64,000 bases of DNA, from the IMG/VR virus record IMGVR_UViG_3300029621_000179, one strand, 5' to 3'. Under the pieces are notes generated by a model, which did not search any database, was not told the DNA's origin, and saw nothing but the letters and a program-made list of their open reading frames with translations. The stretch comes from a virus (lineage: Duplodnaviria > Heunggongvirae > Uroviricota > Caudoviricetes). Position numbers and translations under genes: made by a program. Shown piece after piece: positions 10,577 through 29,290 of this stretch (positions are counted from its first letter, which is position 1; each line of letters starts with the position of its first letter).

Positions 10577-11140
10577 ATGGGGAGAAAGAAAAAGAATGCC
10601 CGGTCAGCAGCACATGGACGAAAGATCCACGTTAATAAATACATCAATCAACGAGGGAAGACCAAGAAAAGGGCAGTAGTATCCTGTCAGCCGGCACCTA
10701 ATAGAGTGCCGATTCAGGAGATGCCGCTTACCAGATGGCCGGTACCAAAGATACCGAAGCAGTATGAGATCTGGTTTGCAGAACTGGGGAATCATTATGG
10801 TACCTCGGTGCAGAGCGGGAACCGCCCGGTGTTGGTTATCAGCAACGATATGGCAAACCGCAATTCTCCAATCATCACGGTAATCCCGATGAGTTCCAAG
10901 CTGAAGAAGCTGGAACTGCCGGTTCACATTCCGGTCACCGGGAGAGACTGCGAAATGCTCCGGGATGAGGGACTGGAAGAATCCATTCTGCTGGTGGAGC
11001 AGATCACGACCATTGACAAGATGGTCCTGTGTAACCGGCTCTGCCGTGTGACCTCGGCCAGGAAAAAGCAGGAGATCGAAGCTGCTGTTAAAAAGCAGTT
11101 TGCGATGCAGGCTTGTATGGGAAGGGAGGCGCAGGCATGA
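10577..11140 (+). CDS. MazF/PemK-family (mRNA interferase fold) protein with basic N-terminal extension
   Basis: RBS GGAGGTGA. The core PKQYEIWFAELGNHYGTSVQSGNRPVLVISNDMANRNSPIITVIPMSS matches the PemK/MazF signature. About 50 aa of Lys/Arg-rich sequence precede it. Confidence 0.6.
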   Translation: MGRKKKNARSAAHGRKIHVNKYINQRGKTKKRAVVSCQPAPNRVPIQEMPLTRWPVPKIPKQYEIWFAELGNHYGTSVQSGNRPVLVISNDMANRNSPIITVIPMSSKLKKLELPVHIPVTGRDCEMLRDEGLEESILLVEQITTIDKMVLCNRLCRVTSARKKQEIEAAVKKQFAMQACMGREAQA

Positions 11141-16205: not shown

Positions 16206-17477
16206 ATGAAAGCGACTGCTGAACTGAAGATGCTGCCGGTGTCCGTACTCAAGCCGGCTGCATACAATCCCCGGAAAAAGCTGAAGCCGGGGGATAAAGA
16301 GTACGAGAAAATCAAGAACTCCATTACGGAGTTCGGCTTCGCAGATCCTTTGGTGGTCAATGCCGACATGACGATTATCGGTGGTCACCAGAGACTGACA
16401 GTAGCGATGGAGCTGGGCTACACCGAAGTGCCTTGTGCGGTGGTGGACATCGACAAGACCAGGGAGAAGGCCCTGAACATCGCACTCAACAAGATCACGG
16501 GTGCATGGGATGATTCTCTGCTGGCTGATCTTTTGAAGGACATTGAGGATTCCAACTTCGACCTCGGTAAGACAGGCTTTGACCCGCCTGAGATCGAGAC
16601 GCTGTTCAACAAGGTCCACAGCAAAGAGGTCAAGGAAGATGACTTCGATGTGGAATCGGAGCTGAAGCAGCCGTGCTTCTCCAAAGAGGGCGACCTCTGG
16701 CATCTGGGTAAGCACATCGTTCTGTGCGGCGATTCCACCAAGCCAGAATGCTACGATACCCTGATGGACGGCACCAAGGCAAATCTGGTACTTTCCGATC
16801 CCCCTTATAACGTGGATGTGGAAGAAACGGCTGGCAAGATCCTGAACGACAACATGGGCGATTCGGAATTCTACCAGTTCCTGCTGGCAGCGTTCCAGCA
16901 GATGCACGGGCATCTGGCGGATGACGGCTCCATCTATATCTTCCATGCAGATACGGAAGGGCTGAACTTTAGAAAGGCATTCAAGGATGCAGGGTTCTAC
17001 CTGTCCGGGTGCTGTATCTGGAAGAAGAATGCTCTGGTGCTGGGACGCAGTCCTTACCAGTGGCAGCACGAGCCGTGTCTTTACGGCTGGAAGCAGAAGG
17101 GGAAACACCAGTGGTATTCCGACCGGAAGCAGACGACCATCTGGGAGTATGACCGGCCGAAGTCCAACAAGGACCATCCGACCATGAAGCCCATCGGTCT
17201 GATGAGCTATCCGATCCGAAATTCCACCATGACCAACGGCATCGTCCTCGATCCGTTCCTTGGCAGCGGTTCTACCCTGATCGCCTGCGAAGAAACCGAC
17301 CGTGTGTGCCGAGGCATTGAGCTGGACCCGAAGTTCGTGGATGTGATCGTGAAGCGTTATATCGAACACAGCGAGGGTCACTACGATGATGTGTATGTCA
17401 TCCGTGACAGTCAGAAGCTGAAGTTCGAGGAAGTGGCGACCTTCGAGCCGGAAAGGGAGGTCGCTGATGGAGAATAA
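16206..17477 (+). CDS. ParB-like nuclease domain fused to N6-adenine/N4-cytosine DNA methyltransferase
   Basis: RBS GGAGGA; ParB N-terminal box (LKPAAYNPRK, IIGGHQRL); DPPY motif (LVLSDPPYNV) and a C-terminal SAM-binding region. Confidence 0.8.
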   Translation: MKATAELKMLPVSVLKPAAYNPRKKLKPGDKEYEKIKNSITEFGFADPLVVNADMTIIGGHQRLTVAMELGYTEVPCAVVDIDKTREKALNIALNKITGAWDDSLLADLLKDIEDSNFDLGKTGFDPPEIETLFNKVHSKEVKEDDFDVESELKQPCFSKEGDLWHLGKHIVLCGDSTKPECYDTLMDGTKANLVLSDPPYNVDVEETAGKILNDNMGDSEFYQFLLAAFQQMHGHLADDGSIYIFHADTEGLNFRKAFKDAGFYLSGCCIWKKNALVLGRSPYQWQHEPCLYGWKQKGKHQWYSDRKQTTIWEYDRPKSNKDHPTMKPIGLMSYPIRNSTMTNGIVLDPFLGSGSTLIACEETDRVCRGIELDPKFVDVIVKRYIEHSEGHYDDVYVIRDSQKLKFEEVATFEPEREVADGE

Positions 17478-19596
17478 ACAGCTGACCCTCGGCAGCCTCT
17501 TTGATGGCTCCGGGGGTTTTCCATTGGGCGGGCTTTTGACCGGGCAGATCACTCCGGTGTGGAGCAGTGAGATCGAGCCGTTTGCCATCCGGGTCACGAC
17601 CAAGCGTCTGCCGCAGGTGAAGCATTATGGAGATGTGTCTGCTATCAGCGGTGCAGACCTACCTCCTGTAGACATCATCACTTTTGGCAGTCCCTGTCAG
17701 GATATGTCCATCGCGGGTAAGCGGGACGGTCTGGATGGTTCACGGTCCAGCCTGTTTTACGAAGCAATCCGAATCGTGAAGGAAATGAGGTGTAAGACCA
17801 ATGGAGAAAAACCAAGATTTATCGTGTGGGAGAATGTGCCAGGGGCCTTCTCCTCAAACAAAGGACAGGACTTCAAAGCAGTCCTCGAAGCCGTCATCGG
17901 TGTTAAAGAACCGTCCGCCTCGGTGCCTGCGCCTGAGAAGAAAGGATGGCCCGACGCTGATTACTACGTGGGAGGCGGATGGAGCGTCGCGTATCGAGTT
18001 TTTGATGCACAATGGTGGGGCGTTCCCCAAAGAAGAAAACGTATCTACCTTGTCGCAGATTTTGCAGACCAGAGTGCCCCAAAGGTATTATTTGAGTCCG
18101 AAGGCGTGTCTCGGTATTCTGCGGAGGGCTTCCGTGCGTGGCAAAGAGCTGCCGCCGGTGCTGAAAGCAGCACTGGAGAGACAGGCTGCAGTGGAGCAGG
18201 AGGACGGCTCTGTCTGAACGATCAGGGCGGAGAGAGGATGGATGTGACGGAAGAGGTGACAGCCACCCTCCGTGCAGAGGCACATCATCCGCCGTGTGTT
18301 ATGGAAGCCGCTGGTTTCTGTACCGAGCATTCCGCAAATGCCAGAAGCATTGGATACGAAGAGGAACGGTCACCGACCCTCCGGGCTGGCGTCGTGCCGG
18401 CCGCCATCGCACTGGAAAATCACCCTGCGGACAGCCGGGTGAAGATTTCCGAGGACGGTAAGGTACAGACACTGACAAGCCGGTGTGGTACGGGTGGCGG
18501 TAATGTCCCGATGGTCATGGACGCTGTTGAAAATTCAGTGGAAAGCCCGGTGAAAGAAGTTGAAAACTCTCCGGCGGTCACATTGAAGATCCGTTCCGGG
18601 TGTGAAGGCGGTGGCAAGGGCGCTATCTGGCAGGAAGAAAAGTCGGCTACCCTCGGCTGCAACAACGACCAGACACTGTTCGTTCCGAAATGCTACGGTG
18701 TCTGCTCTAAAGCCAGCCACTCCATGATGTCCGATAATCCGCAAAGCGGCTTCTATGAAGCGGAGACCTCCCGGACACTAGACCGCAGTGGTGGAGATCC
18801 GACCTGCAATCAGGGCGGTATCTGCGTGGTAGAGCCGGTCGCCTTTACCCAGAACCAGAGGGATGAAGTCCGGGATCTGGGAGAGAAGTCAGCGGCACTT
18901 GCAGCAGAGCCGGGGATGAAGCAGCAGACCTTCGTCCTGCAGGGTAATATGATCGGCCGCAAGGATGAGAACGGTCCGCAGGGGGATGGCGTCAATGAGG
19001 ATGTCTGCTTTACACTGGATGCCACTGACCGCCATGCAGTCTGCGCACCGGAGGATGTGTATGCCATGACCACCGGCTCCTATATGCAGGTGGCAAAAGA
19101 AGTCGCACCGACTCTGATGGCACGGGACTACAAAGACCCGACCACCATCGCACCGGTGCCGCATCTGAACGAGGGTGTCATGGGAACGGTGGCAACCGGG
19201 GCGCATCCAAGCGGCTTCAACGGGCAGGATGCTTTCAATGACCGTCTGGTCATCGATAACCCGGAAGCGCAGCCGGCACCTGTGACCTATACCGTCCGCC
19301 GCTTGACACCGACCGAGTGTGCCAGACTGCAGGGCTTCCCGGACTGGTGGTGCCGGAACCTTGGAACAGAAGATCCGACCGAAGAAGAGCTGGCGTTCTG
19401 GGCAGATGTGTTTGAAACGCACCGCAAAATCGTGACCCACGCCAAGAAGCCGAAAACGGAGAAACAGATCCGGAAATGGCTGGCTGACCCGTATACGGAT
19501 TCGGCAGAGTACCGTATCTGGGGCAACGGCATATGCTTAGCCAACGCATTTTTTGTTCTGGCCGGCATCGCATGGTGTGCAGGTCTGGAAGAATAA
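17467..19596 (+). CDS. DNA (cytosine-5)-methyltransferase with ~400 aa variable region (probably multispecific)
   Basis: Motif I LFDGSGGF, motif IV GSPCQDMSIAGKR, motif VI ENVPG, and late motifs TPTECARLQGFPD. A very long target-recognition insert lies between motifs VIII and IX. Confidence 0.85.
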   Translation: MENKQLTLGSLFDGSGGFPLGGLLTGQITPVWSSEIEPFAIRVTTKRLPQVKHYGDVSAISGADLPPVDIITFGSPCQDMSIAGKRDGLDGSRSSLFYEAIRIVKEMRCKTNGEKPRFIVWENVPGAFSSNKGQDFKAVLEAVIGVKEPSASVPAPEKKGWPDADYYVGGGWSVAYRVFDAQWWGVPQRRKRIYLVADFADQSAPKVLFESEGVSRYSAEGFRAWQRAAAGAESSTGETGCSGAGGRLCLNDQGGERMDVTEEVTATLRAEAHHPPCVMEAAGFCTEHSANARSIGYEEERSPTLRAGVVPAAIALENHPADSRVKISEDGKVQTLTSRCGTGGGNVPMVMDAVENSVESPVKEVENSPAVTLKIRSGCEGGGKGAIWQEEKSATLGCNNDQTLFVPKCYGVCSKASHSMMSDNPQSGFYEAETSRTLDRSGGDPTCNQGGICVVEPVAFTQNQRDEVRDLGEKSAALAAEPGMKQQTFVLQGNMIGRKDENGPQGDGVNEDVCFTLDATDRHAVCAPEDVYAMTTGSYMQVAKEVAPTLMARDYKDPTTIAPVPHLNEGVMGTVATGAHPSGFNGQDAFNDRLVIDNPEAQPAPVTYTVRRLTPTECARLQGFPDWWCRNLGTEDPTEEELAFWADVFETHRKIVTHAKKPKTEKQIRKWLADPYTDSAEYRIWGNGICLANAFFVLAGIAWCAGLEE

Positions 19597-19728
19597 ACTG
19601 GCCCGCTATATTACTAGGTAGAAAGCGACCTGGTGATATGGTGGGCTTACATATTGGTCCTATTTACACAACAGATTTCGCAGTCCCTTGTGTAATTAGT
19701 CGAACATGAAGAATATCGGGAAATGGCC

Positions 19729-19759
19729 TTGATATTTGACCGGTTCAGAGTGATATATG
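19729..19759 (+). promoter_or_regulatory. variant copy of repeated phage promoter (GGCCTTGATA-N-TGaTATATG)
   Basis: Shares the GGCCTTGATA...AGAGTGATATAT core with the copy at 22957; the leader contains CTACCGAAAAG. Confidence 0.4.
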
Positions 19760-19820
19760 TGCTACCGAAAAGAACATCGGGATGCACAAAAACAGAAGAA
19801 AACGAAAGGGGCAATGAATT

Positions 19821-20912
19821 ATGTTGAAATTTGAATTGAACATAGCAGACCGTAAGACACTTGCAAATCGCATGGAGGAGCTGACGGGTATCCATCCTTA
19901 CTACACCAGAGCACCGCTGTATGCTTATGACATCGGCAACTACACCATCGACCGGGACGGCAATCTTCTGGTCGAGCCGGAGAATGCAGATGCCGAGCTG
20001 CTGACGACCCTGCTGAATGAGGGACTGATCCGCGGCGGCGAGAGCATTGAGAGCACGGATGACCAGCCGGAAAACACAGAGCCGACCGAGAATTTGACAG
20101 CGGAGCCTGTGACCGAAGAGGAGCCGGATGATACGGCAGAGGATGGTGCAACAGAGGATGAGCCGGATGCAGAGGAATCGGAAAGCGAAGAGCAGCCGGA
20201 AGCAGAAGACCAGCCGGAAGAAGTGCCGCTGGATCTGGAACTTGCTTTCCCCACCAGCCAGCATAACGGCGTGAGCCTTCGCAATCTGGTCAACCTCATC
20301 TACAGCCGGGGCCGACTCATCAGCAAGGCAACGGGCGGGCACTTCCATGTGGAAACCGACCTGGTCGAAACACTGCGGGATGACAGCTGTACTTACACGG
20401 TGGCAAACTTCATCGAGGCGCTTAAGAGTTACGAAGCACAGTGCGGAACTGCGATGGAAGGTCTGGTGATCACAGAAGAAAAGGTTTCCTTCACAGGATT
20501 CCCGACGGCTTCCGACTATGATCATCTGACGGCTTTCGGTCACCTTGCCATTCTGATGAACCAGCAGGCGATCAGCCAGAAGCGCATCCAGGCAAAGGAT
20601 GTCAACGATGAGAATGAGAAGTATGCACTCCGCACATGGCTCCTGCGGCTTGGGATGAACGGTCCGGATTTCAAAGAGACCCGCAAGATCCTCATGGAGA
20701 ATCTTTCCGGCCATGCGGCTTTCCGGACGGATGAGGAAGCACAGAAGTTCCTTGCAAGGGAAAAGGCAAAACGGGATGCCCTGAAAGCCGCGAAACAGGC
20801 GGCACAGAACAGCAATCCTGCCACTGGGGAAACGGCCGCACAGGATGCAGCCCAGCCGACACAGCCCGACTGTGGGGTGGATACGGCGCAGATGCTGGAG
20901 GCGGGAGCGTAA
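19821..20912 (+). CDS. amidoligase-like paralogue (divergent N-terminus, acidic linker; C-terminal half homologous to 21145..22083)
   Basis: The C-terminal half aligns with the downstream amidoligase (HFHVE vs VHIHIG; EKYALRTWLLRLGMNG vs DKYAMRCWMLRLGFIG). The N-terminus is different and there is a poly-acidic stretch. Confidence 0.45.
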   Translation: MLKFELNIADRKTLANRMEELTGIHPYYTRAPLYAYDIGNYTIDRDGNLLVEPENADAELLTTLLNEGLIRGGESIESTDDQPENTEPTENLTAEPVTEEEPDDTAEDGATEDEPDAEESESEEQPEAEDQPEEVPLDLELAFPTSQHNGVSLRNLVNLIYSRGRLISKATGGHFHVETDLVETLRDDSCTYTVANFIEALKSYEAQCGTAMEGLVITEEKVSFTGFPTASDYDHLTAFGHLAILMNQQAISQKRIQAKDVNDENEKYALRTWLLRLGMNGPDFKETRKILMENLSGHAAFRTDEEAQKFLAREKAKRDALKAAKQAAQNSNPATGETAAQDAAQPTQPDCGVDTAQMLEAGA

Positions 20913-21068
20913 GCTCCCAAGCCCCCAATGGGGGCCGGAAAATAAGTGAGACCCTCTTCCATTGTACCGATATTAACTCTGAAAATGTACATTATCAAGC
21001 AGATAAACCGCAGAAATGTACACGATCATTCTGCCTCATATTTGTCGAATATATGTTCTTTTATATCC

Positions 21069-21097
21069 TTGCTATTATCCGCACCTGACGGTAATAT
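21069..21097 (+). promoter_or_regulatory. repeated phage promoter copy (TTGCTA-17-TAATAT) + conserved leader
   Basis: Same hexamers, spacing and GCACATACCGAAAGGG leader as the copies at 26895, 27566, 28186, 28779 and 29262. Confidence 0.5.
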
Positions 21098-21144
21098 GCA
21101 CATACCGAAAGGGAAAACAAGGAAAAAACAAAGGAGAACATACC

Positions 21145-22083
21145 ATGAACGATAAAACAAGAGAGCAGATTGAAGCCATGAAAAACCAGACCATCGGAGT
21201 TGAGATCGAGATGAACAACATCACCAGAGAAAAAGCGGCAAGAAAGGTTGCCGAGTACTTCGGAACCAGAGCATGGAACGCCGCCAGCGAGTACGGATAT
21301 TACAGCTGGGCTTGCAAGGACGGACAGGGCAGGGTTTGGAAATTCCAGAGGGATGTGAGCATCTACGGACCGGACGCAGAAAAATGCGAACTGGTCACCC
21401 CGATCCTCACCTACGACGACATCGAGTCCCTGCAGGAAATCATCCGGCTGCTCCGCAAGGCAGGCGCAAAGAGCAGTCCAAGCCGCGGATGCGGGGTCCA
21501 CATCCACATCGGCAAAGGCGACCACACCGCAAAGACCATCCGCAACCTTGTGAACATCATGGCGGCACACGAACAGCAGATCGGCAGAGCCATCCGGATC
21601 GACGCAGGGCGTACCGGACAATATTGCCGGGTAGTCGACCACCGCTTCCTCGACCGGCTGAACCGCGAGAAGCCGACCACCATGCGCAAGCTGGAAGACA
21701 TCTGGTACGAAGGCAACGGTTCCAGCTGGGAAAACCGGAATGCCCACTACAATTCAAGCCGGTACCATATGCTGAACCTCCATGCCACCTTTACAAAAGG
21801 AACCATTGAATTCCGCCTTTTCCAATTCGCAGACCCAGCGGACGGAAAGCGTAACGGACTGCATGCCGGTGAGATGAAAGCCTACATCCAGCTTTGCCTC
21901 GCAATGAGCCAGCTTGCCAAGATGGTCAGAACGGCAAGCCCGAAGCCCCAGCAGACCGACAACGACAAATACGCAATGCGGTGCTGGATGCTCCGGCTGG
22001 GATTCATTGGTGAGGAGTTCGCAACGGCAAGGGAAATCCTTCTGCGGAATATGGAGGGCAACGCAGCATGGCGCAACAAATAA
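21145..22083 (+). CDS. putative amidoligase (Amidoligase_2 / glutamine-synthetase-like fold)
   Basis: N-terminal Glu-rich strands (IGVEIEMNN, ELVTPIL) and GCGVHIHIG resemble the Pfam Amidoligase_2 family; it neighbours AIG2/GGCT genes as that family does in Firmicutes. Confidence 0.55.
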   Translation: MNDKTREQIEAMKNQTIGVEIEMNNITREKAARKVAEYFGTRAWNAASEYGYYSWACKDGQGRVWKFQRDVSIYGPDAEKCELVTPILTYDDIESLQEIIRLLRKAGAKSSPSRGCGVHIHIGKGDHTAKTIRNLVNIMAAHEQQIGRAIRIDAGRTGQYCRVVDHRFLDRLNREKPTTMRKLEDIWYEGNGSSWENRNAHYNSSRYHMLNLHATFTKGTIEFRLFQFADPADGKRNGLHAGEMKAYIQLCLAMSQLAKMVRTASPKPQQTDNDKYAMRCWMLRLGFIGEEFATAREILLRNMEGNAAWRNK

Positions 22084-22151
22084 GCGCCAGCTGTACGGGC
22101 ACCTTTTGGGCGGGCAACCGCCCTTGAGGTGGTAGAAGGAGGTGCAGATTT

Positions 22152-22388
22152 ATGAAAAGCACGTTAAAAAATGAAAGCACACCGGGCGGCAGGACCTTTA
22201 AGGTGACCATCACCGAGACCTACCAGAGAACGGTGACCATTTATGAATCCGAAATGAAAGAGCCGACCGTGGAGGAAGCCCAGCGAGTGGCAGAGGACTG
22301 GTGGCAGGACAGCCAGATTGAGCTTGGGACAGATGATTTTCAGGGCGTGGAATTCACTGGCAGGGAGGACGGTGAGGCGGATGTTTGA
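22152..22388 (+). CDS. small hypothetical acidic protein
   Basis: 78 aa ORF with RBS GGAGG; it overlaps the next start by 8 nt. Confidence 0.35.
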   Translation: MKSTLKNESTPGGRTFKVTITETYQRTVTIYESEMKEPTVEEAQRVAEDWWQDSQIELGTDDFQGVEFTGREDGEADV

Positions 22389-22902
22389 ATTGATCAGCCG
22401 AAGCCCATCCAGATATTATCTTGCCTACGGAAGCAACCTCGACATGGAGCGGATGGGAAAGAGATGCCCATATGCTGTAGTGGTCGGCACGACCGAGATC
22501 ATGGGCTACCGGCTCCTGTTCAAAAAGAGCAAGACCGGCTGCTATGCCACCATTGAACAGGACGCCAATGAAAGCGTACCGGCAGTGGTCTGGAAGCTCT
22601 CGGAATATGATGAGCTCCTGCTGGACCGGTACGAGGGCTGCCCAAGATACTACTACAAGAAACAGTTCCAGCTTCCGGTCTGGAACCTGAACGGGAACCG
22701 CATGAAAAAGGCAAAGCCCTGCATCGCTTATGTGATGCACGAGGACCGGCGGCTTGGCTGCCCGGATGCCGAGTATTTTGAACTGCTGCGCGGCGGATAC
22801 AGCGACTGGGAATTTCCGCTGGACACACTGAAGCGTGGACTGGCAGCTAGTATCGGAAGGGCGGAAGCCATCCGGTATCTGAAGAAGCAGCAGATGATGT
22901 AA
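22381..22902 (+). CDS. AIG2/gamma-glutamyl cyclotransferase (GGCT)-like protein
   Basis: YLAYGSNLDMERM is the hallmark YxAYGSNL motif of the GGCT/AIG2 fold; ~173 aa. Confidence 0.7.
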   Translation: MFELISRSPSRYYLAYGSNLDMERMGKRCPYAVVVGTTEIMGYRLLFKKSKTGCYATIEQDANESVPAVVWKLSEYDELLLDRYEGCPRYYYKKQFQLPVWNLNGNRMKKAKPCIAYVMHEDRRLGCPDAEYFELLRGGYSDWEFPLDTLKRGLAASIGRAEAIRYLKKQQMM

Positions 22903-22956
22903 GAGTACACGATCAAAAGCAAAAAACATTGTGCAGTATATGATGCTCATCGGCCT

Positions 22957-22986
22957 TGATAAATCAGGGCAGAAGAGTGATATATA
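22957..22986 (+). promoter_or_regulatory. variant repeated promoter copy (TTGATA-18-TGaTATATA, extended -10)
   Basis: GGCCTTGATAAATCAGGGCAGAAGAGTGATATATA followed by CCATACCG; it lies upstream of the second GGCT-like gene. Confidence 0.45.
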
Positions 22987-23032
22987 CCATACCGCCAGAC
23001 AAGAGCGGAGAAAACCGAAGGGAGAGATTCAA

Positions 23033-23512
23033 ATGAAGAATAAGAAATATTACATCGCCTACGGCAGCAACCTGTCGGTGGAGCAGATGGCATACCGGTG
23101 TCCGGATGCAAAAATTGCAGGGCAGGCGGTGCTGGCAGGCTGGGAGCTTTTGTTCCGGGGCTGCGCCACCATCGCACCGAACCCGAAGAAGAACACGCCG
23201 GTTCTGGTGTGGGAGATTTCGGAAAGGAACGAAGGAAACCTCGACCTCTATGAGGGCTACCCGAATTACTACCGCAAGGAAGACCTGAACATCGAACTGC
23301 TCCGGGAAGGGGCAGAACCGGAGATGGTGACCGCAATGGTATATATCATGGAGAACGACTTCGGACGCCGCGCACCGAGCCGGTATTACTACAAAGTCCT
23401 GCATGACGGCTACAAGGCATTCCACTTCCCGATGCACATCCTCGAAGGTGCGCTGAAGGAATGCATGGATAAGGATGCCGCCCAGCGGATGATCGAGGAG
23501 GTGCAGGCATGA
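23033..23512 (+). CDS. AIG2/GGCT-like protein (second paralogue)
   Basis: N-terminus KKYYIAYGSNLSVEQM; the same fold motif as the first paralogue. Confidence 0.7.
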   Translation: MKNKKYYIAYGSNLSVEQMAYRCPDAKIAGQAVLAGWELLFRGCATIAPNPKKNTPVLVWEISERNEGNLDLYEGYPNYYRKEDLNIELLREGAEPEMVTAMVYIMENDFGRRAPSRYYYKVLHDGYKAFHFPMHILEGALKECMDKDAAQRMIEEVQA

Positions 23513-23976
23513 ATTTCGCAGATCAGAAAATGGTCAAGAAGTTGAGAAAAGAGTTCCCGGTCGGATGCCGAATCGTCCTCGATGAGATGGATGACAGGCA
23601 GGCACCGCCCATCGGAACGCAGGGAACCTGCAACGGGGTCGATGATGCCGGAAACATCTTGGTGAATTGGGACACCGGAAGCCATCTGAACATTGCCTAC
23701 GGCGCGGACAGTTGCCACCGTGTGGCAACGGATGCCGAGGTCAAGGTGTCGCTCGACCACCTTGGTAAAACGCGACAGACCGGCCCACGTTGCCCCAGGT
23801 GCGGAGCAAAGCCTGACTGCTACGACCATCAGCAGCAGGCACTCAGCCGAAGGGCGGACATCCAGATCTGCAACCGCTGCGGAACGGAGGAAGCGTTAGA
23901 GGACATTGCATGGGGCGGACAGCAGAAGATGCATCTTGCAGACTGGGCAATTGTGAAAGGGGGTTGGGTCGAATGA
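23509..23976 (+). CDS. DUF4314 domain protein with C-terminal zinc ribbon
   Basis: FPVGCRIVLDEMDDRQAPPIGTQGTCNGVDDAGNILVNWDTGSHL fits DUF4314; a CPRCG...CNRCG zinc ribbon follows. Confidence 0.5.
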   Translation: MNFADQKMVKKLRKEFPVGCRIVLDEMDDRQAPPIGTQGTCNGVDDAGNILVNWDTGSHLNIAYGADSCHRVATDAEVKVSLDHLGKTRQTGPRCPRCGAKPDCYDHQQQALSRRADIQICNRCGTEEALEDIAWGGQQKMHLADWAIVKGGWVE

Positions 23977-24344
23977 AAGTTCTTCTGATCAAACCGATGG
24001 AGCATCCGCAGGTGGTTGACATTGAAAACTCCCTGAAAGAGTTCTACCGCATCCTCGACTGCGACTGCATCACAGCCACCTACCCGTGGGAAGAACGCGC
24101 CGCCCTGGTCACCGATGACAACGGGCTGTTCACCGAGAAGCCATTCAGCCGATACATTCCGGAGCTGGAGCAGCCCATCAAGGGAAACTTCTTCATCTGC
24201 GGATTGGGCGAGGAAGATTTCGCAGAGCTGCCACAGGACCTGATTCAGAAATTCAGGGAACGCTTCTGGGTGCCGGAGGCATTCGTCAGCATGTTCGGGC
24301 AGATGGCAGTCATCCAGATGGATGACGGAACGAAGCCGGAATAA
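23973..24344 (+). CDS. DUF3846-like protein
   Basis: MKVLLIKPMEHPQVVDIENSLKEF... resembles the DUF3846 N-terminus; RBS AAAGGGGG. Confidence 0.4.
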   Translation: MKVLLIKPMEHPQVVDIENSLKEFYRILDCDCITATYPWEERAALVTDDNGLFTEKPFSRYIPELEQPIKGNFFICGLGEEDFAELPQDLIQKFRERFWVPEAFVSMFGQMAVIQMDDGTKPE

Positions 24345-24416
24345 GATACCACAATCAGAAAAAATACCCTCTCGGCCAGAAAAGACCGGGAGGGCTTAGT
24401 TTAACAGGAGGAGCCT

Positions 24417-24608
24417 ATGGGACACAGAAAGATGCCGGCTTATGGCGAGAGGGAACACGGCGGCAGATACATTCTGGATGAATACGAATGGTCAAGAAAC
24501 CACTGTAAGGCGGTGACCATCCGCAGATGGAAAAGGGACCTAAAAAAGAAAGCCAGAGCGCATAACCGCAGGGTGATGCATCAGGCAATGCAGGGCGAAG
24601 CCGATTAG
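24417..24608 (+). CDS. small basic hypothetical protein
   Basis: 63 aa ORF; RBS AGGAGGAG. Confidence 0.3.
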   Translation: MGHRKMPAYGEREHGGRYILDEYEWSRNHCKAVTIRRWKRDLKKKARAHNRRVMHQAMQGEAD

Positions 24609-24614
24609 ACGGAA

Positions 24615-24650
24615 AATGGGGGCCTCAAAAGAATGGGAACCCCCTTCCAG
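24615..24650. terminator. candidate bidirectional terminator between convergent genes
   Basis: GGGGG...CCCCC stem with T-runs on both strands (CUUCCAGUUU on plus; AUUUUCC on minus). Confidence 0.3.
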
Positions 24651-24661
24651 TTTACTGTATA

Positions 24662-25062
24662 TTACCTCTGGAAAGCAACGATAGCAAGGAGAACCGCCGC
24701 CATAATGTACACAAACATCTGGCAGCGGTTTTGTGTATCATACCAAACCAAAACGGGGGATACGAGGCAGAACCCCAGCTTCTGCTGGGGGAGCCTTTTG
24801 GGATTCCTTAGAAGAAATCCCAAAAGGCTCATGCCGACCTCGTTCAGTCGTTCCTCCATGCTGTGGTAGTGCCAATCTTCTTCCTCTTCTTCGTCCTCTT
24901 CCTCAAGCTCTTCTGGGAAGGGGTCGTGCCGCCATCCGGCTTTCTGGTATTCTTCTTCCCGGATGTCGTTGCGGTCGTAAATATCCAGCTCGTATTCTTC
25001 TTCAAGCTCTGCGATGCGGTTTTCGATTGCGGTTTCAACTTCTGTAATGGTCTTTTTCATGG
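24662..25062 (-). CDS. acidic protein with C-terminal hydrophobic (membrane-anchor-like) segment
   Basis: RBS GGAGGA on the minus strand; MKKTITEVETAIENRIAELEEEYE..., then a poly-Glu run, then a C-terminal hydrophobic stretch; the only minus-strand gene in this region. Confidence 0.4.
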
Positions 25063-25209
25063 TTTTTGTCCTCCGTTTTTGGTTTGGTTTTCTTTGCTTT
25101 CGTTGTGTGTATAATGCCGCAGAAACACATATATAGCAAGTCAATCAGGGGTTATATATGTACCAAACATGAGGGGCAAAGATCGTTGATAATATGACGT
25201 TTTATGGCC

Positions 25210-25238
25210 TTGCTATCACAGGGCGGTGACGGTAATAT
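25210..25238 (+). promoter_or_regulatory. repeated phage promoter copy separated from its gene by the IS insertion
   Basis: TTGCTA-17-TAATAT plus an ACAGCTAC leader (as in copy 26895); the IS left end begins 41 bp downstream. Confidence 0.5.
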
Positions 25239-25292
25239 ACAGCTACAAAAAGCAAAGGAGTGGTGTTAGAATATAAATAGTACAAAATAAAC

Positions 25293-25643
25293 ATGACCAT
25301 TTTCAATAAATATTATATGATAGTCATAGATCAAGAGAGGAGAATGGTTATGGCAAGAGGTACAAGGTATTCACAAGAGTTTAAGGAAGATGCAGTAAGA
25401 TATCGTTTGGAGCATCCGGAGGTTGCACTTCGTAAGTGTGCTGAAAATCTTGGAATTAGTGAATCTGCACTGAAGAGTTGGATGAAATCAGCAAAGGAAC
25501 ATGAAGGAACTGTTCCGACCCGTGGTTCAGGCAATTACGCAAGTGATGAGGCCAAAGAAATCGCACGTTTGCAGCGAGAGTTACGCGATACGAAGGATGC
25601 ACTTGAAGTATTAAAAAAAGCAATCGGTATTCTGGGAAAATGA
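25293..25643 (+). CDS. IS3-family transposase OrfA (HTH)
   Basis: RBS GAGAGGAG; helix-turn-helix N-terminus (LRKCAENLGISESALKSW) and a leucine-zipper-like C-terminus; slippery A_AAA_AAA at 25613-25619. Confidence 0.8.
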   Translation: MTIFNKYYMIVIDQERRMVMARGTRYSQEFKEDAVRYRLEHPEVALRKCAENLGISESALKSWMKSAKEHEGTVPTRGSGNYASDEAKEIARLQRELRDTKDALEVLKKAIGILGK

Positions 25644-26563
25644 CAAAAACTCTTTACGCTGCTACATCTAGATATGTAGAAGAAATCAACAACCTGCCTG
25701 TGAAACGTCAAGTTTCTGTCAGCGGGATACTGAAAAAATTGGACGTTTCACGATCTGGTTACAATGCATGGAAGAAACGGGTTCCTTCGGACACGTCTAT
25801 TCGGCGAACCGTTTTAAAAGAAAAAATCCAAAAGATTTATGATGATTCACATCAAAACTATGGTGCTCCTAAAATTGCAGCTGAATTACGAAAATCCGGA
25901 GAAAATATTGCTGAAAAAACAGTAGGAAATTACATGCGTCAAATGGGAATAAAAGCCCAATGGATCAAGCCATATACTCAAACAACCATTGACTCTGATC
26001 TCAGCCAGGAACTAAAAAATATCTTAAACGAACAATTTAATCCAGAACATCCAGATGCTGTATGGTGCTCAGATATCACTTATATTTGGACGTATGAAGG
26101 ATTTGTGTATCTTACAAGCATTATGGATCTATATTCCAGGAAAATCATTTCCTGGGTGCTGAGTGAGACGTTGGAGGCATCTCATGTAGTAAAATGTATT
26201 GAGAAGGCAAAACAGTCCAGACATATTGAAAATCCTCTGATTTTCCATTGTGATAGAGGATGCCAATACGTATCCGAAGCATTCCGTAAGGCAACAGAGG
26301 GAATGCTTCACAGTTATTCCAAGAAAGCTTATCCTTGGGATAATGCCTGCATAGAATCGTTCCATGCCCTTTTAAAGCGAGAATGGATTAACCGTTTTAA
26401 AATTTTCAACTACACTCATGCATATAAACTGATTTTTGAATATATCGAGACGTTCTACAATACAGTCCGTATTCATAGTCATTGTGGATATTTATCTCCA
26501 AATGAATATGAGGAAGAATATCTAAAAAATCTGGAAATGAACGTAACATACTTAGCAAGTTAA
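25640..26563 (+). CDS. IS3-family transposase OrfB (DDE/rve integrase core)
   Basis: DDE region DITYI...FHCDRGCQYVS...ESFHALLKREW in the -1 frame relative to orfA. Confidence 0.8.
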   Translation: MTKTLYAATSRYVEEINNLPVKRQVSVSGILKKLDVSRSGYNAWKKRVPSDTSIRRTVLKEKIQKIYDDSHQNYGAPKIAAELRKSGENIAEKTVGNYMRQMGIKAQWIKPYTQTTIDSDLSQELKNILNEQFNPEHPDAVWCSDITYIWTYEGFVYLTSIMDLYSRKIISWVLSETLEASHVVKCIEKAKQSRHIENPLIFHCDRGCQYVSEAFRKATEGMLHSYSKKAYPWDNACIESFHALLKREWINRFKIFNYTHAYKLIFEYIETFYNTVRIHSHCGYLSPNEYEEEYLKNLEMNVTYLAS

Positions 26564-26637
26564 CAATTACATAAAAAAGGAAAATTGGTTGCATTTAATT
26601 TGTACTTTTTCTTGACATAGGACCAGAGGACAGCAAA

Positions 26638-26814
26638 ATGGCTGATTGGAGAACATGGAAAAAAGGGAGAAAGACAACATGGCACTGGAACGAATTCGAT
26701 GGAAGCGGAAGACGGGAAGGAATCATCACCGAGGTTCATGAAGACCATGCGATTATGGAAGCAGACGGCATGCACCTCTGGATCGACGATGACACGGCAG
26801 AGATGTTCAGCTAA
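26638..26814 (+). CDS. small Trp-rich hypothetical protein (58 aa)
   Basis: ATG after AGAGGA, just downstream of the IS right end; probably the gene originally driven by the promoter at 25210. Confidence 0.3.
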   Translation: MADWRTWKKGRKTTWHWNEFDGSGRREGIITEVHEDHAIMEADGMHLWIDDDTAEMFS

Positions 26815-26894
26815 GAAAACGGGGAGGGAAACCTCCCCGGATAAACACATAAATCCTCCAGATCAGGGGGCAGATGATCGTGTACTTTAGCCGC

Positions 26895-26923
26895 TTGATA
26901 GTATCCGGCAGTGACGGTAATAT
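26895..26923 (+). promoter_or_regulatory. repeated phage promoter copy (TTGATA-17-TAATAT)
   Basis: Preceded by the conserved ATCGTGTACTTTAGCCGC. Confidence 0.55.
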
Positions 26924-26953
26924 ACAGCTACCAAAACGAAAGGGGCAAAGAAC

Positions 26954-27160
26954 ATGGAACGCTACACTTACGAGATCACCTTTACACGGCTGGATGGACA
27001 GCCGGATGAAATCCAGCAGCACACCAGCGAGGAGCTGGCAAGAGAATGCTTCCGGCTTTTCGATGAGCCGGACAGCGCAGAGATGTACAGCAAAATCGAA
27101 CTTAGCTGCCACGACTGGGAAACAGGCGCGGATGAGATTCTGGAAACGATGACATTTTGA
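26954..27160 (+). CDS. small acidic hypothetical protein
   Basis: 68 aa ORF preceded by the leader and RBS AAAGGGG. Confidence 0.45.
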   Translation: MERYTYEITFTRLDGQPDEIQQHTSEELARECFRLFDEPDSAEMYSKIELSCHDWETGADEILETMTF

Positions 27161-27175
27161 GAGGAGAACAAAAAC

Positions 27176-27436
27176 ATGACCTACACAAAAATCAACCTTT
27201 ATCTTGCAAACGGAATTCCAGAGGCACTCAGCAACCTCTGGTACGGAAGCGACAGTGCGGTGGTCGAGATCAGGGATGCCGTTGAGGATGCGAAGAACGG
27301 CAAGGACCTTCTGAACCGCATCCAGAAGATGAAGCTCCTTCGGAAATTCACCCTCGACAGGGAGAACGACAAGCGCATCCGCTTCAAGGGAACGGACTGC
27401 TGGCGCAACGTAAGCTACCTCGAAATCATCCGCTAA
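27176..27436 (+). CDS. small hypothetical protein
   Basis: 86 aa ORF; RBS GAGAGGAG; co-transcribed with 26954. Confidence 0.45.
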   Translation: MTYTKINLYLANGIPEALSNLWYGSDSAVVEIRDAVEDAKNGKDLLNRIQKMKLLRKFTLDRENDKRIRFKGTDCWRNVSYLEIIR

Positions 27437-27457
27437 AGGCAAGACCGACAGGCGCAA

Positions 27458-27483
27458 GGGGCTGGAAATGACCAGCCTTTTGC
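27458..27483 (+). terminator. intrinsic terminator
   Basis: GGCTGG-aaatga-CCAGCC followed by TTTTG. Confidence 0.45.
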
Positions 27484-27565
27484 TCGTGTCTGTCTTCCGA
27501 AAGCTGGCATGAAAAGCACATAAATATGACAATTACAGGGTCAAATGATCGTGTAGTTTAGCCGC

Positions 27566-27594
27566 TTGATAGTGTTTCGAGGTGACGGTAATAT
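27566..27594 (+). promoter_or_regulatory. repeated phage promoter copy (TTGATA-17-TAATAT)
   Basis: ATCGTGTAGTTTAGCCGC upstream; the leader GTGCATACCGAAAGGGGAAAAC...ACGGAGG follows. Confidence 0.55.
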
Positions 27595-27638
27595 GTGCAT
27601 ACCGAAAGGGGAAAACAACAAAAACGGAGGATACGACA

Positions 27639-28088
27639 ATGACGAAGAACGAAGACCGCATCAATAAACTTTTCAAGGAACTGGTACCGGATACGGGCAA
27701 GGCAGACAGCCTCGCAGGGGAGCTGGTAAGGGCAATGAGCCGCATCGGATACCGCTTTTACAACGACGGCGACCAGCTGGGCATCGGCTACGGCAAGGAA
27801 ACCTGCAACCCTGCAGGGCGGTTCCTTGGAGCCAAGGGCAACGACAAAATCGCTAAACTGACTGCAGATGCCTGGGCAGTCTACAGCGAGGAAGCCTACG
27901 AAAAGGTTCTGGACATCCTTTGCGGAGCGGTTGCCGACTATGTTGAGCAGAACCCAGACCTTAGAAACCAGCCGACCGAAGATATGTGGGACTTCAAGGA
28001 TGAGGAAGAAGACCAGGATGACAGCTGGGATGAAGAGGAAGATGACTGGGGCGAAGAGGAAGATTACGAGGACGAAGAAGACTACTAA
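27639..28088 (+). CDS. hypothetical protein with poly-acidic C-terminal tail
   Basis: 149 aa ending DEEEDQDDSWDEEEDDWGEEEDYEDEEDY. Confidence 0.5.
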   Translation: MTKNEDRINKLFKELVPDTGKADSLAGELVRAMSRIGYRFYNDGDQLGIGYGKETCNPAGRFLGAKGNDKIAKLTADAWAVYSEEAYEKVLDILCGAVADYVEQNPDLRNQPTEDMWDFKDEEEDQDDSWDEEEDDWGEEEDYEDEEDY

Positions 28089-28103
28089 GCCAGAGAAACA
28101 CAT

Positions 28104-28135
28104 GGGGCTTGCCGGTAACGGCAGCCCTTTTCTTC
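28104..28135 (+). terminator. candidate intrinsic terminator
   Basis: GGGGCTTGCCG-gtaa-CGGCAGCCC followed by TTTTCTTCT. Confidence 0.35.
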
Positions 28136-28185
28136 TGCTGTAATACGCACAGTTCCGGGCGGCTATCTTTGTGTAGTATAGCCGC

Positions 28186-28214
28186 TTGATAGTGTGTGAC
28201 ATAGACGGTAATAT
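28186..28214 (+). promoter_or_regulatory. repeated phage promoter copy (TTGATA-17-TAATAT)
   Basis: TTGTGTAGTATAGCCGC upstream; leader GCACATACCGAAACGGAAAACC...ACGGAGG. Confidence 0.55.
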
Positions 28215-28258
28215 GCACATACCGAAACGGAAAACCAAGAAAAACGGAGGAAACCACC

Positions 28259-28450
28259 ATGAAGAAGAACATTACCAAGGAAGAAGAAAAAGCCCTGCTG
28301 GAGATCGCCAAGCGCCTGATGGCAGCGGTAGACAGCCGGGGCGACCTCGAAGCCCGCGACAATGACAGCGAGGACTTCATTGAGGTTCCGGTCTGGGGCG
28401 TCCAGAAAGCAATGGAGGAAGCCTACCTGCTGGGACGGATGACCAGATAA
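28259..28450 (+). CDS. small acidic hypothetical protein
   Basis: 63 aa ORF; RBS ACGGAGG. Confidence 0.45.
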   Translation: MKKNITKEEEKALLEIAKRLMAAVDSRGDLEARDNDSEDFIEVPVWGVQKAMEEAYLLGRMTR

Positions 28451-28522
28451 ACCGACAGCCTCCGACACAGCCCCACACAGGGGCAGATGTGGGGGTGTGG
28501 ATGCGCCAGGAAGGAAAAGCAC

Positions 28523-28729
28523 ATGGGAGAACGGATGATGGATACCATCGTGGAAATCTACAACCACATGAATGACAGCGATAAGGATGCCTTCACACTG
28601 GGGGATGCCGAGGATATGGTGGAAGACCAGATTAGGATGGACAAGGAAGCCGGGCGGGAACCGCTGACATATGACCCGCAGCTCTTTTACGATACCGTTG
28701 TGGAACTCATGGAGCAGGACGCAGAGTGA
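28523..28729 (+). CDS. small acidic hypothetical protein
   Basis: 68 aa ORF; ATG after GGAAGGAAAAG. Confidence 0.4.
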   Translation: MGERMMDTIVEIYNHMNDSDKDAFTLGDAEDMVEDQIRMDKEAGREPLTYDPQLFYDTVVELMEQDAE

Positions 28730-28778
28730 CGTACATTCTGCCTGGTATTCCGGGTGGAAGATCGTGTACTTTAGCCGC

Positions 28779-28807
28779 TTGCTATTCTTTGCACCTGACG
28801 GTAATAT
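28779..28807 (+). promoter_or_regulatory. repeated phage promoter copy (TTGCTA-17-TAATAT)
   Basis: ATCGTGTACTTTAGCCGC upstream; leader GCACATACCGAAAGGGGAAAGCC...ACGGAGG. Confidence 0.55.
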
Positions 28808-28864
28808 GCACATACCGAAAGGGGAAAGCCCCAAGGGAAAAACGAAAACACGGAGGAATTCACC

Positions 28865-29149
28865 ATGAAAAAGCATTTGATCGACTTTCCAGAAAACAAC
28901 ATCAGCATTGAGAGTTTCTACGACCGACTCAGACCTTGCTACGACAGCATCATGCAGTTCGGTGACCGGGTTTTGGTTGCCCAGATGAACTGGAACGGCA
29001 TGCTGGAGGGAGCGGTATACGGATTTGTGGAAGACCCAGAGGAAGGCTGGTCACCGATTGAGTGCCGACTGGAGCTTCTGAAGATTTCCGATGAGACCTA
29101 CACGGATGCTGGTCACGCGATCGAGTGGTGCATCAAGAACGCACACTGA
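28865..29149 (+). CDS. small hypothetical protein
   Basis: 94 aa ORF; RBS ACGGAGG. Confidence 0.45.
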   Translation: MKKHLIDFPENNISIESFYDRLRPCYDSIMQFGDRVLVAQMNWNGMLEGAVYGFVEDPEEGWSPIECRLELLKISDETYTDAGHAIEWCIKNAH

Positions 29150-29261
29150 AAAAGGGCAGAGCTCCTTCGGGGGCTTTTGCTCGTAGTGGCGGATTCTTCC
29201 AGTGTGGAAATACACATAAATCCGACAAAAAGAGGTGTGTATGATCGTGCAGCATAGCCGC

Positions 29262-29290
29262 TTGCTATGTCCGGGCAGTGACGGTAATAT
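29262..29290 (+). promoter_or_regulatory. repeated phage promoter copy (TTGCTA-17-TAATAT)
   Basis: ATCGTGCAGCATAGCCGC upstream; leader ACAGTCACAACGAAGGGAAAAGCC...ACGGAGG. Confidence 0.55.

Follow-up and report, generated by a model that had tools for sequence, protein, structure and literature searches.

A 64,000-nucleotide stretch of tailed-phage DNA (hereafter, the window) carries on its plus strand a set of four genes, designated A to D, in which an intact amidoligase (B) is accompanied by two enzymes of the γ-glutamyl cyclotransferase (GGCT) fold (C and D) and by a catalytically dead paralogue of the ligase (A); the most likely reading of this set, to which we assign a probability of about one half, is that of a coupled "add and remove" γ-glutamyl amide module at work in the cytoplasm of the infected cell. 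All four open reading frames were recovered in an ORF check of the window, and the lengths of B and of the three genes that follow it (312, 78, 173 and 159 amino acids) are the same in independent gene calls made on contigs encoding an identical B.

The product of gene B (21145–22083; 312 amino acids) matches Pfam Amidoligase_2 (PF12224) at model positions 1–244 of 245 (E = 2.1e-55, 188.7 bits against a cut-off of 22) and PHROG 2443, "amidoligase", at 6e-105, bearing out the family assignment proposed in an earlier, sequence-only reading of this DNA. The full set of catalytic motifs is present, i.e., the ExE strand, the E..P strand, HxH, HE, the Arg and EFR, which comprise the metal, ATP and acyl-phosphate residues, and E20, E22, E82, H119, H121, H142-E143, R156, R206 and E222-F223-R224 are invariant or nearly so in family alignments A2 and A3. 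No sequence-level match in the PDB was found for B; its AF2 model, of moderate confidence (pLDDT 74.7) and built from a shallow input alignment, agrees with the same assignment, the predicted fold being of the GS/GCL type and matching YbdK, glutamate-cysteine ligase, PafA/Dop and glutamine synthetase. Judged from its residues and modelled fold, B should be an active ATP-dependent carboxylate-amine ligase. Its fold relatives phosphorylate a glutamyl γ-carboxylate and then pass it to an amine; to our knowledge, glutamate has never been shown to be the acyl donor of an Amidoligase_2 enzyme and, as the earlier reading had maintained, no biochemical characterization of any member of the family was found in the literature searched.

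Genes C (22381–22902; 173 amino acids) and D (23033–23512; 159 amino acids) encode two types of GGCT-fold protein, the "C-type" being distinguished from the "D-type" by a KxSKTGxY insertion. Both match GGACT (PF06094; C 1.5e-8, 35.7 bits; D 9.6e-12, 46.0 bits; cut-off 22.8) and PHROG 2520, "gamma-glutamyl cyclotransferase" (4e-36 and 8.5e-41, respectively), and D additionally matches AIG2_2 (PF13772; 6.6e-7, 30.1 bits, cut-off 27). The Y(L/I)AYGSNL motif, by which the two had been attributed to the AIG2/GGCT group, is indeed present in both together with the catalytic Glu (LDxYEG), and these elements are invariant in the family; in alignment A4 no variation is seen at Y16, G17 and E85-G86, and the catalytic Glu aligns with the Glu of DEQEG in 2pn7 (E98 of human GGCT). 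D matches 2pn7 over its full length (6.7e-6) and the profile of the C/D family finds human GGCT at 1.8e-18, likewise over the full length, as against 3e-6 for GGACT; by these comparisons C and D are closest to human γ-glutamyl cyclotransferase. GGCT acts on free γ-Glu-amino acids, GGACT being the γ-glutamylamine/ε-Lys enzyme, and GGCT-type enzymes break γ-glutamyl amides by cyclizing the glutamyl part to 5-oxoproline.

According to the preferred reading, B would use ATP, within the cytoplasm of the infected cell, to join glutamate to an amine (R-NH2); the resulting γ-glutamyl amide would then be converted by C and D into R-NH2 and 5-oxoproline. The two reactions might constitute a transient protection/deprotection or tagging/untagging step, or else a γ-glutamyl cycle whose substrate is a small amine (for example, an amino acid or peptide stem). 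Since the closest solved relatives of both the ligase and the GGCT act on free γ-glutamyl-amino acids, we lean towards the small-molecule version, with a γ-glutamyl-amino-acid-like substrate rather than DNA. If the same bond were made and cut with no step in between, the outcome would be a futile conversion of Glu and ATP to 5-oxoproline, for which a rationale is needed. A precedent for a non-futile combination of ligase and GGCT is provided by butirosin, where the ATP-dependent ligase BtrJ adds a γ-glutamyl group that the GGCT-fold BtrG later removes by cyclization; unlike B, however, BtrJ is an ATP-grasp and not a GS/GCL-fold enzyme, and the carrier protein and tailoring enzymes of butirosin are absent here. 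As to the γ-glutamyl cycle (glutamate-cysteine ligase/YbdK, human C7orf24), B displays an identity of only 10–12% and no glutathione synthetase partner is present here.

The premise that ligase and cyclotransferase are coupled is supported by the survey of gene neighbourhoods. With one genome taken per species (at least 588 species have a match), a GGCT gene was found downstream of the ligase, on the same strand and within 2.5 kb, in 72 of 72 loci, with a median gap of 106 nt; the adjacency holds in all 53 loci having full ±3 kb flanks, the coupling recurs in 73 of 75 IMG/VR loci, and the adjacency persists while every other neighbour turns over. What is invariant is a single ligase with a single GGCT, to which particular lineages have added the second GGCT and the DpnD-like gene. 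C and D are 34% identical and, on sequence comparison, C/D as well as A/B are old paralogues, each type being conserved separately in other lineages, so that no recent duplication is involved, and the earlier proposal of a duplicated set is not supported. The alternative that ligase and cyclotransferases are merely independent accessory neighbours, with GGCT alone degrading, for instance, a host γ-glutamyl metabolite, could appeal to FP_Taranis and to Porphyromonas phages, whose amidoligases have no annotated GGCT within ~3.5 kb, and to Phage G, which has GGCT genes. Nevertheless, this alternative is rendered highly improbable by the 72/72 and 53/53 adjacencies and by the recurrence of the pair among unrelated Firmicutes and Actinobacteria phages, such as B. 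subtilis phage 031MP004 (gp40/gp44), in which the GGCT even belongs to a different subfamily (YGTLRHG type), and Arthrobacter phage Salgado (gp97/gp98). On plasmids the pair is rare (7 of 72,556 records).

The amidoligase–AIG2 association is already known, and the locus is a straightforward member of it. Iyer, Abhiman, Burroughs and Aravind reportedly described in 2009 conserved neighbourhoods of Amidoligase_2 and AIG2/GGCT in mobile elements of Firmicutes and predicted the pairing. The link to these neighbourhoods drawn in the sequence-only reading proved sound: the locus shares with them (in phages, PHROG 2443 plus PHROG 2520) the two families, their adjacency and the phage setting, and differs in possessing, in this lineage, two further genes, an old second GGCT paralogue and one of DpnD/PcfM-like type. 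On the other hand, the suggestion that the system is undescribed has to be abandoned, since the pair is annotated by PHROGs, occurs in the genomes of those ≥588 species and is listed in prophages of Clostridium clostridioforme LM41 as two "amidoligase" PHROG 2443 genes and a GGCT (PMC11318856).

Amidoligase_2 and GGCT are likewise combined in the equally uncharacterized "peptidoglycan modification" cassette of phiEco32, LUZ24, PaP3 and RIO-1-like podophages, which is located among early or DNA-metabolism genes and adds an ATP-grasp ligase, a COOH-NH2_lig protein (PF14395) and a class-II glutamine amidotransferase; the ORFs scanned in the window, both those at 13.7–30.4 kb and those outside it, gave no match to any of the three. 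Salgado, whose GGCT and amidoligase are joined by a GATase, is intermediate. A cell-wall function, an idea said to go back to Iyer 2009 and Hardies 2013, would consist in modifying or recycling peptidoglycan stem peptides or cytoplasmic precursors containing the γ-D-Glu linkage, whereby superinfection would be blocked or the wall prepared for lysis. In the phiEco32, LUZ24 and RIO-1-like podophages, the related five-gene cassette is currently interpreted in this way, as cited in PMC5498523 and PMC11945000. Furthermore, γ-D-Glu-mDAP/Lys is a natural γ-glutamyl amide, and all module proteins look cytoplasmic, which is compatible with an action on precursors. However, the partners that define the podophage cassette are lacking here, a linked wall-related gene is found in 0 of 53 loci, GGCT requires on Glu a free α-amine, a group that L-Ala blocks in intact stems, and no test of the hypothesis in any phage was found in the literature searched; we therefore consider a wall function unlikely.

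The carrier is a temperate gut siphophage of the order Ca. Heliusvirales, very common in the human gut, and the gene set is an accessory module of this phage. Eight of the nine markers of the order (DUF2800, DUF2815/Enc34 SSB, PolA, nuclease, SNF2 helicase, TerL, portal, Clp protease and major capsid; list from PMC9226167) were found in the window, the VRR-NUC nuclease being the sole one not identified, and among annotated phages the nearest are Ca. Heliusvirales records (PV0364xx). As had been recognized from the sequence, genes A–D are placed between DNA methylases (upstream) and terminase (downstream). Between B and C lies a 78-amino acid DpnD/PcfM-like gene (22152–22388, plus strand; PF14207, 3.1e-7, 30.7 bits versus 25), which belongs to the same transcription unit as these two genes and, in the neighbourhood comparison, accompanies every two-GGCT locus. 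The transcription unit starting at D continues with a gene for a DUF4314 protein having a Cys-rich C-terminal extension (23509–23976, plus strand; PF14192, 1.8e-27) and ends with one for a DUF3846 protein (23973–24344, plus strand; PF12957, 3.9e-24). A DUF4314 gene occurs in 44 of the 53 loci, in 38 of them upstream, and most other lineages have a short DUF4314 gene that separates the ligase gene from the A-like one.

A promoter-like motif, CTTGMTA-N14-17-GTRATAT, is present in the window in 10 copies, as opposed to 0 expected by chance in the pattern search, all of them within 19728–29290. Plus-strand copies precede A (19728–19756, CTTGATA-N15-GTGATAT, in a position kept in close relatives), B (21068–21097, ~77 nt upstream, in a position retained even by distant Heliusvirales loci, among them L067, L070, L093 and L113) and D (22955–22983, identified by pattern search and comparison of relatives). 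No copy of its own was found for C in the same search of the window, and the ATG of C overlaps the stop codon of the DpnD/PcfM-like gene; the repeated promoter pointed out in the earlier reading is thus borne out, with three copies for four genes. A hairpin-containing repeat following A (20927–20967, plus strand; direct repeat family D10, 76% identity), whose stem reads GCCCCC-AAT-GGGGGC in the sequence and whose second copy is at 24615–24655, probably marks a transcription-unit boundary.

The promoter-like motif is conserved across the order and is also carried by an Nmad4 "nucleotide modification associated" gene. This sharing, together with the location of the module directly after the genes for SAM synthetase, a ParB-N6 methylase and a C5 methylase, could be taken to mean that the module is part of a DNA-modification block of the phage and serves to build up or trim back an adduct of amino-acid type on a base, and amidoligase and amidotransferase genes with no assigned role do accompany thymidine-hypermodification clusters (PMC8989533). 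However, 5-hmdU kinase, aGPT-Pplase, dUMP hydroxymethylase and TET/JBP gave no Pfam match among the scanned ORFs of the window (small unscanned ORFs excepted), and the pairs of the B. subtilis and Arthrobacter phages have no annotated methylase within 3.5–5 kb. Moreover, we know of no GGCT-fold enzyme that acts on nucleic acid, and the succession of methylase, ligase and terminase may be nothing more than the fixed layout of this phage order; a DNA-directed function is accordingly quite improbable.

Gene A (19821–20912; 363 amino acids) had been counted as one of two amidoligase-like enzymes. Its product consists of an N-terminal domain (1–76), a disordered acidic linker (77–133) and a folded region (137–330) that ends in a C-terminal helical module common to A and B. 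It has no Pfam match at E ≤ 0.01, Amidoligase_2 included, and matches PHROG 2443. The similarity to the amidoligase is confined to the C-terminal half, as previously noticed, with 39% identity over 67 C-terminal residues and an hhalign profile–profile alignment of A columns 127–294 with B columns 117–313 (probability 99.7%, E = 1e-25). The HxH, HE and EFR motifs, which align in A to L-E-L-A-F, S-R-G and S-F-T, respectively, are absent from A and not conserved across the A family, which is itself conserved although catalytically dead. On these residues A is a non-catalytic paralogue and not a second ligase.

In pupylation (PafA ligase, Dop depupylase, Pup tag), too, writing and erasing are divided between two paralogues, and the folds of B and, weakly, of A recall those of PafA and Dop. 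A lacks the catalytic residues and therefore cannot be a Dop analogue, and the eraser here would be of the GGCT fold, not a ligase paralogue. A pupylation-like, tag-free process can nonetheless be envisaged in which a host or phage protein receives from B a single γ-glutamyl group on its lysines (or on some other amine), a mark then taken off by the GGCTs, with A as the targeting subunit and host take-over or anti-defence as the purpose. Iyer et al. are said to have predicted peptide tagging in 2009, the disordered, acidic linker of A gives this dead paralogue the look of an adaptor or decoy, and the neighbours (methylases, DpnD/PcfM, DUF4314, DUF3846) are typical anti-restriction/accessory genes. 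This process is made unlikely by the far greater nearness of C/D to GGCT than to GGACT in the profile values given above, by the absence of any PADLOC relation and by the failure to find here a Pup-like small tag with a conserved C-terminal Gly-Gly-Glu/Gln. The only candidate, the DUF4314 protein, ends in ...KGGWVE here and was rejected, its C-termini varying across 60 homologues.

Within the coupled γ-glutamyl amide module, A would probably be a partner or adaptor, acting via the helical module that it has in common with B and that is restricted to A-like and B-like families; its role may also be unrelated to B and GGCT, because streptococcal phages have A-like genes without either. The "second amidoligase" of such prophage listings represents a separate, catalytically dead paralogue family.

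All four open reading frames of the quartet described in the sequence-only reading lie on the plus strand, gene A at 19821-20912 (363 aa), gene B at 21145-22083 (312 aa), gene C at 22381-22902 (173 aa) and gene D at 23033-23512 (159 aa), and the boundaries of the genes in this region are reproduced by the independent gene calls of metagenome contigs encoding an identical B protein, which the assembly collection lists in 856 of its blocks. Profile search places B in Pfam Amidoligase_2 (2.1e-55) and gives both C and D scores exceeding the curated cut-offs of GGACT/AIG2, which bears out the families originally assigned to these three genes; PHROGs labels A and B alike as phrog_2443 "amidoligase enzyme" and C and D alike as phrog_2520 "gamma-glutamyl cyclotransferase" (GGCT). 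A 78-aa DpnD/PcfM-like gene is found between B and C, and D is followed by a DUF4314 gene and then by a DUF3846 gene. No sequence-level relatives of B were found in the PDB, and membership in the defence or anti-defence catalogues was rejected, none of the seven proteins of the module having a match in PADLOC or NCBIfam. The DUF4314 gene (23509-23976), usually flanked by the A-like gene and the ligase, is located in this lineage behind the second GGCT, and its product has here an extra Cys-rich (CPRC...CNRC), zinc-ribbon-like C-terminal half. That this protein, ending in ...KGGWVE, could be a Pup-like tag was also rejected, the C-termini being variable among 60 homologues.

Close relatives of B were found at 79 loci of IMG/VR, where the order A-B-DpnD-C-D-DUF4314-DUF3846 is retained whole within the lineage of this phage, and at least 588 bacterial species of a one-genome-per-species collection encode a relative. 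In the survey of gene neighbourhoods, a check that had been proposed from the sequence alone, the GGCT adjoins the ligase downstream, on the same strand and within 2.5 kb, in 72/72 loci (one genome per species; median gap 106 nt) and again in all 53 loci having complete flanks of ±3 kb. In these 53 loci the A-like gene is next to B in 44, always upstream, DUF4314 also in 44 (upstream in 38), the C5 methylase in 37, always upstream, DUF3846 in 8 and DpnD in 4, both always downstream. A second GGCT gene occurs in just 8 of the 72 loci with enough downstream sequence, which reduces the invariant unit to the ligase and a single GGCT. The association is found in unrelated phages as well: the lytic B. 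subtilis phage 031MP004 encodes an amidoligase (gp40) and a GGCT of the GGACT-like YGTLRHG subtype (gp44), and Arthrobacter phage Salgado a GGCT (gp97), an amidoligase (gp98) and a glutamine amidotransferase (gp99). The ligase is nearly absent from plasmids, with a relative in 7/72,556, none of them mobilisable; an origin from a conjugative element, which DpnD/PcfM, DUF4314 and DUF3846 might have suggested, was therefore discarded, the element being a complete siphophage. Near-identical whole modules (B 96% identical) are carried by assemblies of Blautia faecis and Faecalibacterium intestinale, from two Clostridia families, which means that the host range is unusually broad or else that an assembly is contaminated.

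The first reading had counted two amidoligase-like genes. Profile-profile comparison does align A with residues about 117-313 of B (probability 99.7%, E 1e-25). However, A has other residues in place of the HxH, HE and EFR motifs of B and these positions are not conserved among the A family, so that A is predicted to be a pseudoenzyme and not a second ligase. A was also rejected as a full-length paralogue of the ligase, for profile comparison of its N-terminal 70 residues with B is not significant (probability 0.2%) and fold-level hints alone are left. The AF2 model of A has two confidently folded parts (1-76 and 137-330) with a disordered, acidic linker (77-133) between them. Fold searches with A return only weak matches, although Dop, YbdK, GCL and phage amidoligases are over-represented among them. 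Conservation within A is highest in a C-terminal helical module, NEKYAxRxWLLRLGxxGxxxKxxRxIL, common to A and B and present in 2,689 clusters at 50% identity, in which a helix-hairpin-helix-like pattern is seen by eye. The idea that this module is a domain of its own whose fusions would be informative was not retained, since among the best 150 of the proteins found Amidoligase_2 is the sole recurring domain (44), the rest being domain-less A-like proteins; other families are fused to it once each in that set, probably as a result of miscalling. Short A-like proteins, annotated as "virulence-related protein", occur in streptococcal and Erysipelothrix Heliusvirales having neither ligase nor GGCT, a distribution from which it follows that the A family would have a role independent of those enzymes. 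Those of Streptococcus phage Javan630 (L081:4644-5231) and Erysipelothrix phage phi1605 carry the C-terminal module and are encoded at the same genome position.

C and D appear intact, each retaining its YGSN loop along with the catalytic Glu. They are 34% identical to each other and represent two old GGCT paralogue types. The profile of the C/D family matches human GGCT (1.8e-18) far better than GGACT (3e-6).

A pattern search of the window yielded 10 copies of the motif CTTGMTA-N14-17-GTRATAT, against 0 expected by chance, all within 19728-29290, in the block lying between the C5 methylase gene and that of the small terminase. The promoter-like motif, in most cases with a conserved ATACCGAAAGG box after it, precedes A, B and D, whereas C shows translational coupling to the DpnD-like gene. 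Three transcription units are predicted accordingly: A, B-DpnD-C and D-DUF4314-DUF3846. This fits the claim that a repeated phage promoter serves each unit, with three promoter-like copies instead of four and none before C. Distant Heliusvirales retain the copy that lies ~77 nt ahead of the ligase, another precedes the A-like gene of Javan630 (L081:4481-4509), and the motif occurs at many further loci, a conservation suggestive of a regulon or regulator site common to the whole order. Two hairpin-containing elements 76% identical to each other, at 20927-20967 after A and at 24615-24655 after the DUF3846 gene, are probably terminators bounding the transcription units; they were missed by a simple terminator scan because they have no T-run. 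An IS3-family insertion sequence (25293-26563; 116-aa orfA and 307-aa rve-type transposase), flanked by motif copies at 25209 and 26894, is specific to this phage copy, close relatives having only about 318 nt at the site.

The genome encodes replication proteins (DUF2800 nuclease, Enc34-type SSB, PolA, DUF932, SNF2 helicase, MazF-like toxin and VirE-type primase), DNA-modification enzymes (SAM synthetase, ParB-N6 methylase and C5 methylase), structural and packaging proteins (small and large terminase, portal, Clp-type protease, HK97-type capsid, tape measure and tail proteins) and a Cro/CI-type HTH protein with an IrrE-like peptidase, genes of this kind being markers of Ca. Heliusviridae/Heliusvirales (PMC9226167). 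The nearest annotated phages are the PV0364xx Heliusvirales genomes, and amidoligase and GGCT go unmentioned in the Heliusvirales papers. The MazF/PemK-type toxin homologue (10577-11140; 9e-21) is directly upstream of the VirE-type primase gene, with a slight overlap. The C5 cytosine methylase (17467-19596) is unusually long (709 aa) and its Pfam domain is split into three separate stretches, which points to large insertions separating the catalytic motifs. Two small genes immediately precede the terminase: the one at 28865-29149 has a match to Nmad4 (nucleotide modification associated domain 4; 3e-20), the one at 28259-28450 to DUF6900 (1.6e-18). Could the locus serve to modify DNA? This is possible in view of its position, with methylases upstream and Nmad4 downstream, and of an unexplained co-occurrence (PMC8989533), but gene position and this co-occurrence are its entire basis and hypermodification core genes are absent.

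The enzyme families are established, as are the intactness of the active sites, the obligate adjacency of the genes, their own promoter-like motifs and their phage specificity; what reaction would the enzymes then carry out? The close structural relatives of B appear all to activate a glutamyl gamma-carboxylate to an acyl-phosphate, and GGCT-fold enzymes all to cut gamma-glutamyl amides through cyclisation to 5-oxoproline; in the simplest coupled reading a gamma-glutamyl amide would be written by B and removed by C and D. Because free gamma-Glu-amino acids are the substrates of the best relatives of ligase and GGCT alike, we lean towards a small molecule or a peptide stem as the amine acceptor. 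The pair might provide a protect/deprotect step, as do butirosin BtrJ/BtrG, or might run a gamma-glutamyl cycle with the net conversion of Glu and ATP into 5-oxoproline, the futility of which is the main weakness. The interpretation first put forward, a duplicated set making and removing amide tags during infection, is partly supported: it keeps its enzyme families, phage setting and promoter-like motifs and loses the second ligase and the duplication.

Cell-wall modification is a possible alternative; of the five components that make up the "peptidoglycan modification" cassette of podophages, however, the locus has two and lacks three, and so does not belong to it. Protein tagging is likewise possible. 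Unlikely, at roughly one chance in seven, is that A, B and the two GGCTs together would effect the reversible mono-gamma-glutamylation of a macromolecular amine (a lysine of a host or phage protein, or a DNA-bound amine), for host take-over or defence evasion by the most widespread Firmicute gut phages, A acting as a targeting or regulatory subunit via the C-terminal module it has in common with B.

The amidoligase-AIG2 neighbourhood in Firmicutes was reportedly predicted by Iyer et al. in 2009 and stated in the description of Pfam PF12224. The ligase and GGCT genes are already labelled by annotation pipelines, and a "two amidoligase + GGCT" pattern has been tabulated without analysis in C. 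clostridioforme prophages (PMC11318856); what had been called an undescribed system is accordingly of a known but uncharacterised kind. No biochemical characterisation of phage amidoligase or GGCT members was found in the literature searched, in agreement with the sequence-only reading, the Klebsiella "amidoligase" CfmP being an ATP-grasp enzyme of a different family. New here are the assignment of A as a predicted pseudoenzyme, the invariant unit of ligase and one GGCT, the division of the GGCT paralogues into two types, the conservation of the promoter-like motif over the phage order and the tractable model phages.

A specialist would find this result unsurprising; nevertheless, the system is very widespread and the question testable. 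Ca. Heliusvirales rank among the commonest phage lineages in the human gut, prophages of at least 588 bacterial species carry the ligase-GGCT pair, and a 15-year-old prediction is now easier to test, the invariant unit being one predicted active ligase and one GGCT, the second "ligase" a likely pseudoenzyme, and the pair being present in cultivable lytic phages of B. subtilis and Arthrobacter. Reversible mono-gamma-glutamylation, if true, would introduce a new form of post-translational modification into phage-host conflict. A protein or DNA target would mean a new modification chemistry for phage biology, and a metabolite target a widespread phage rewiring of glutamate/5-oxoproline metabolism in gut bacteria.
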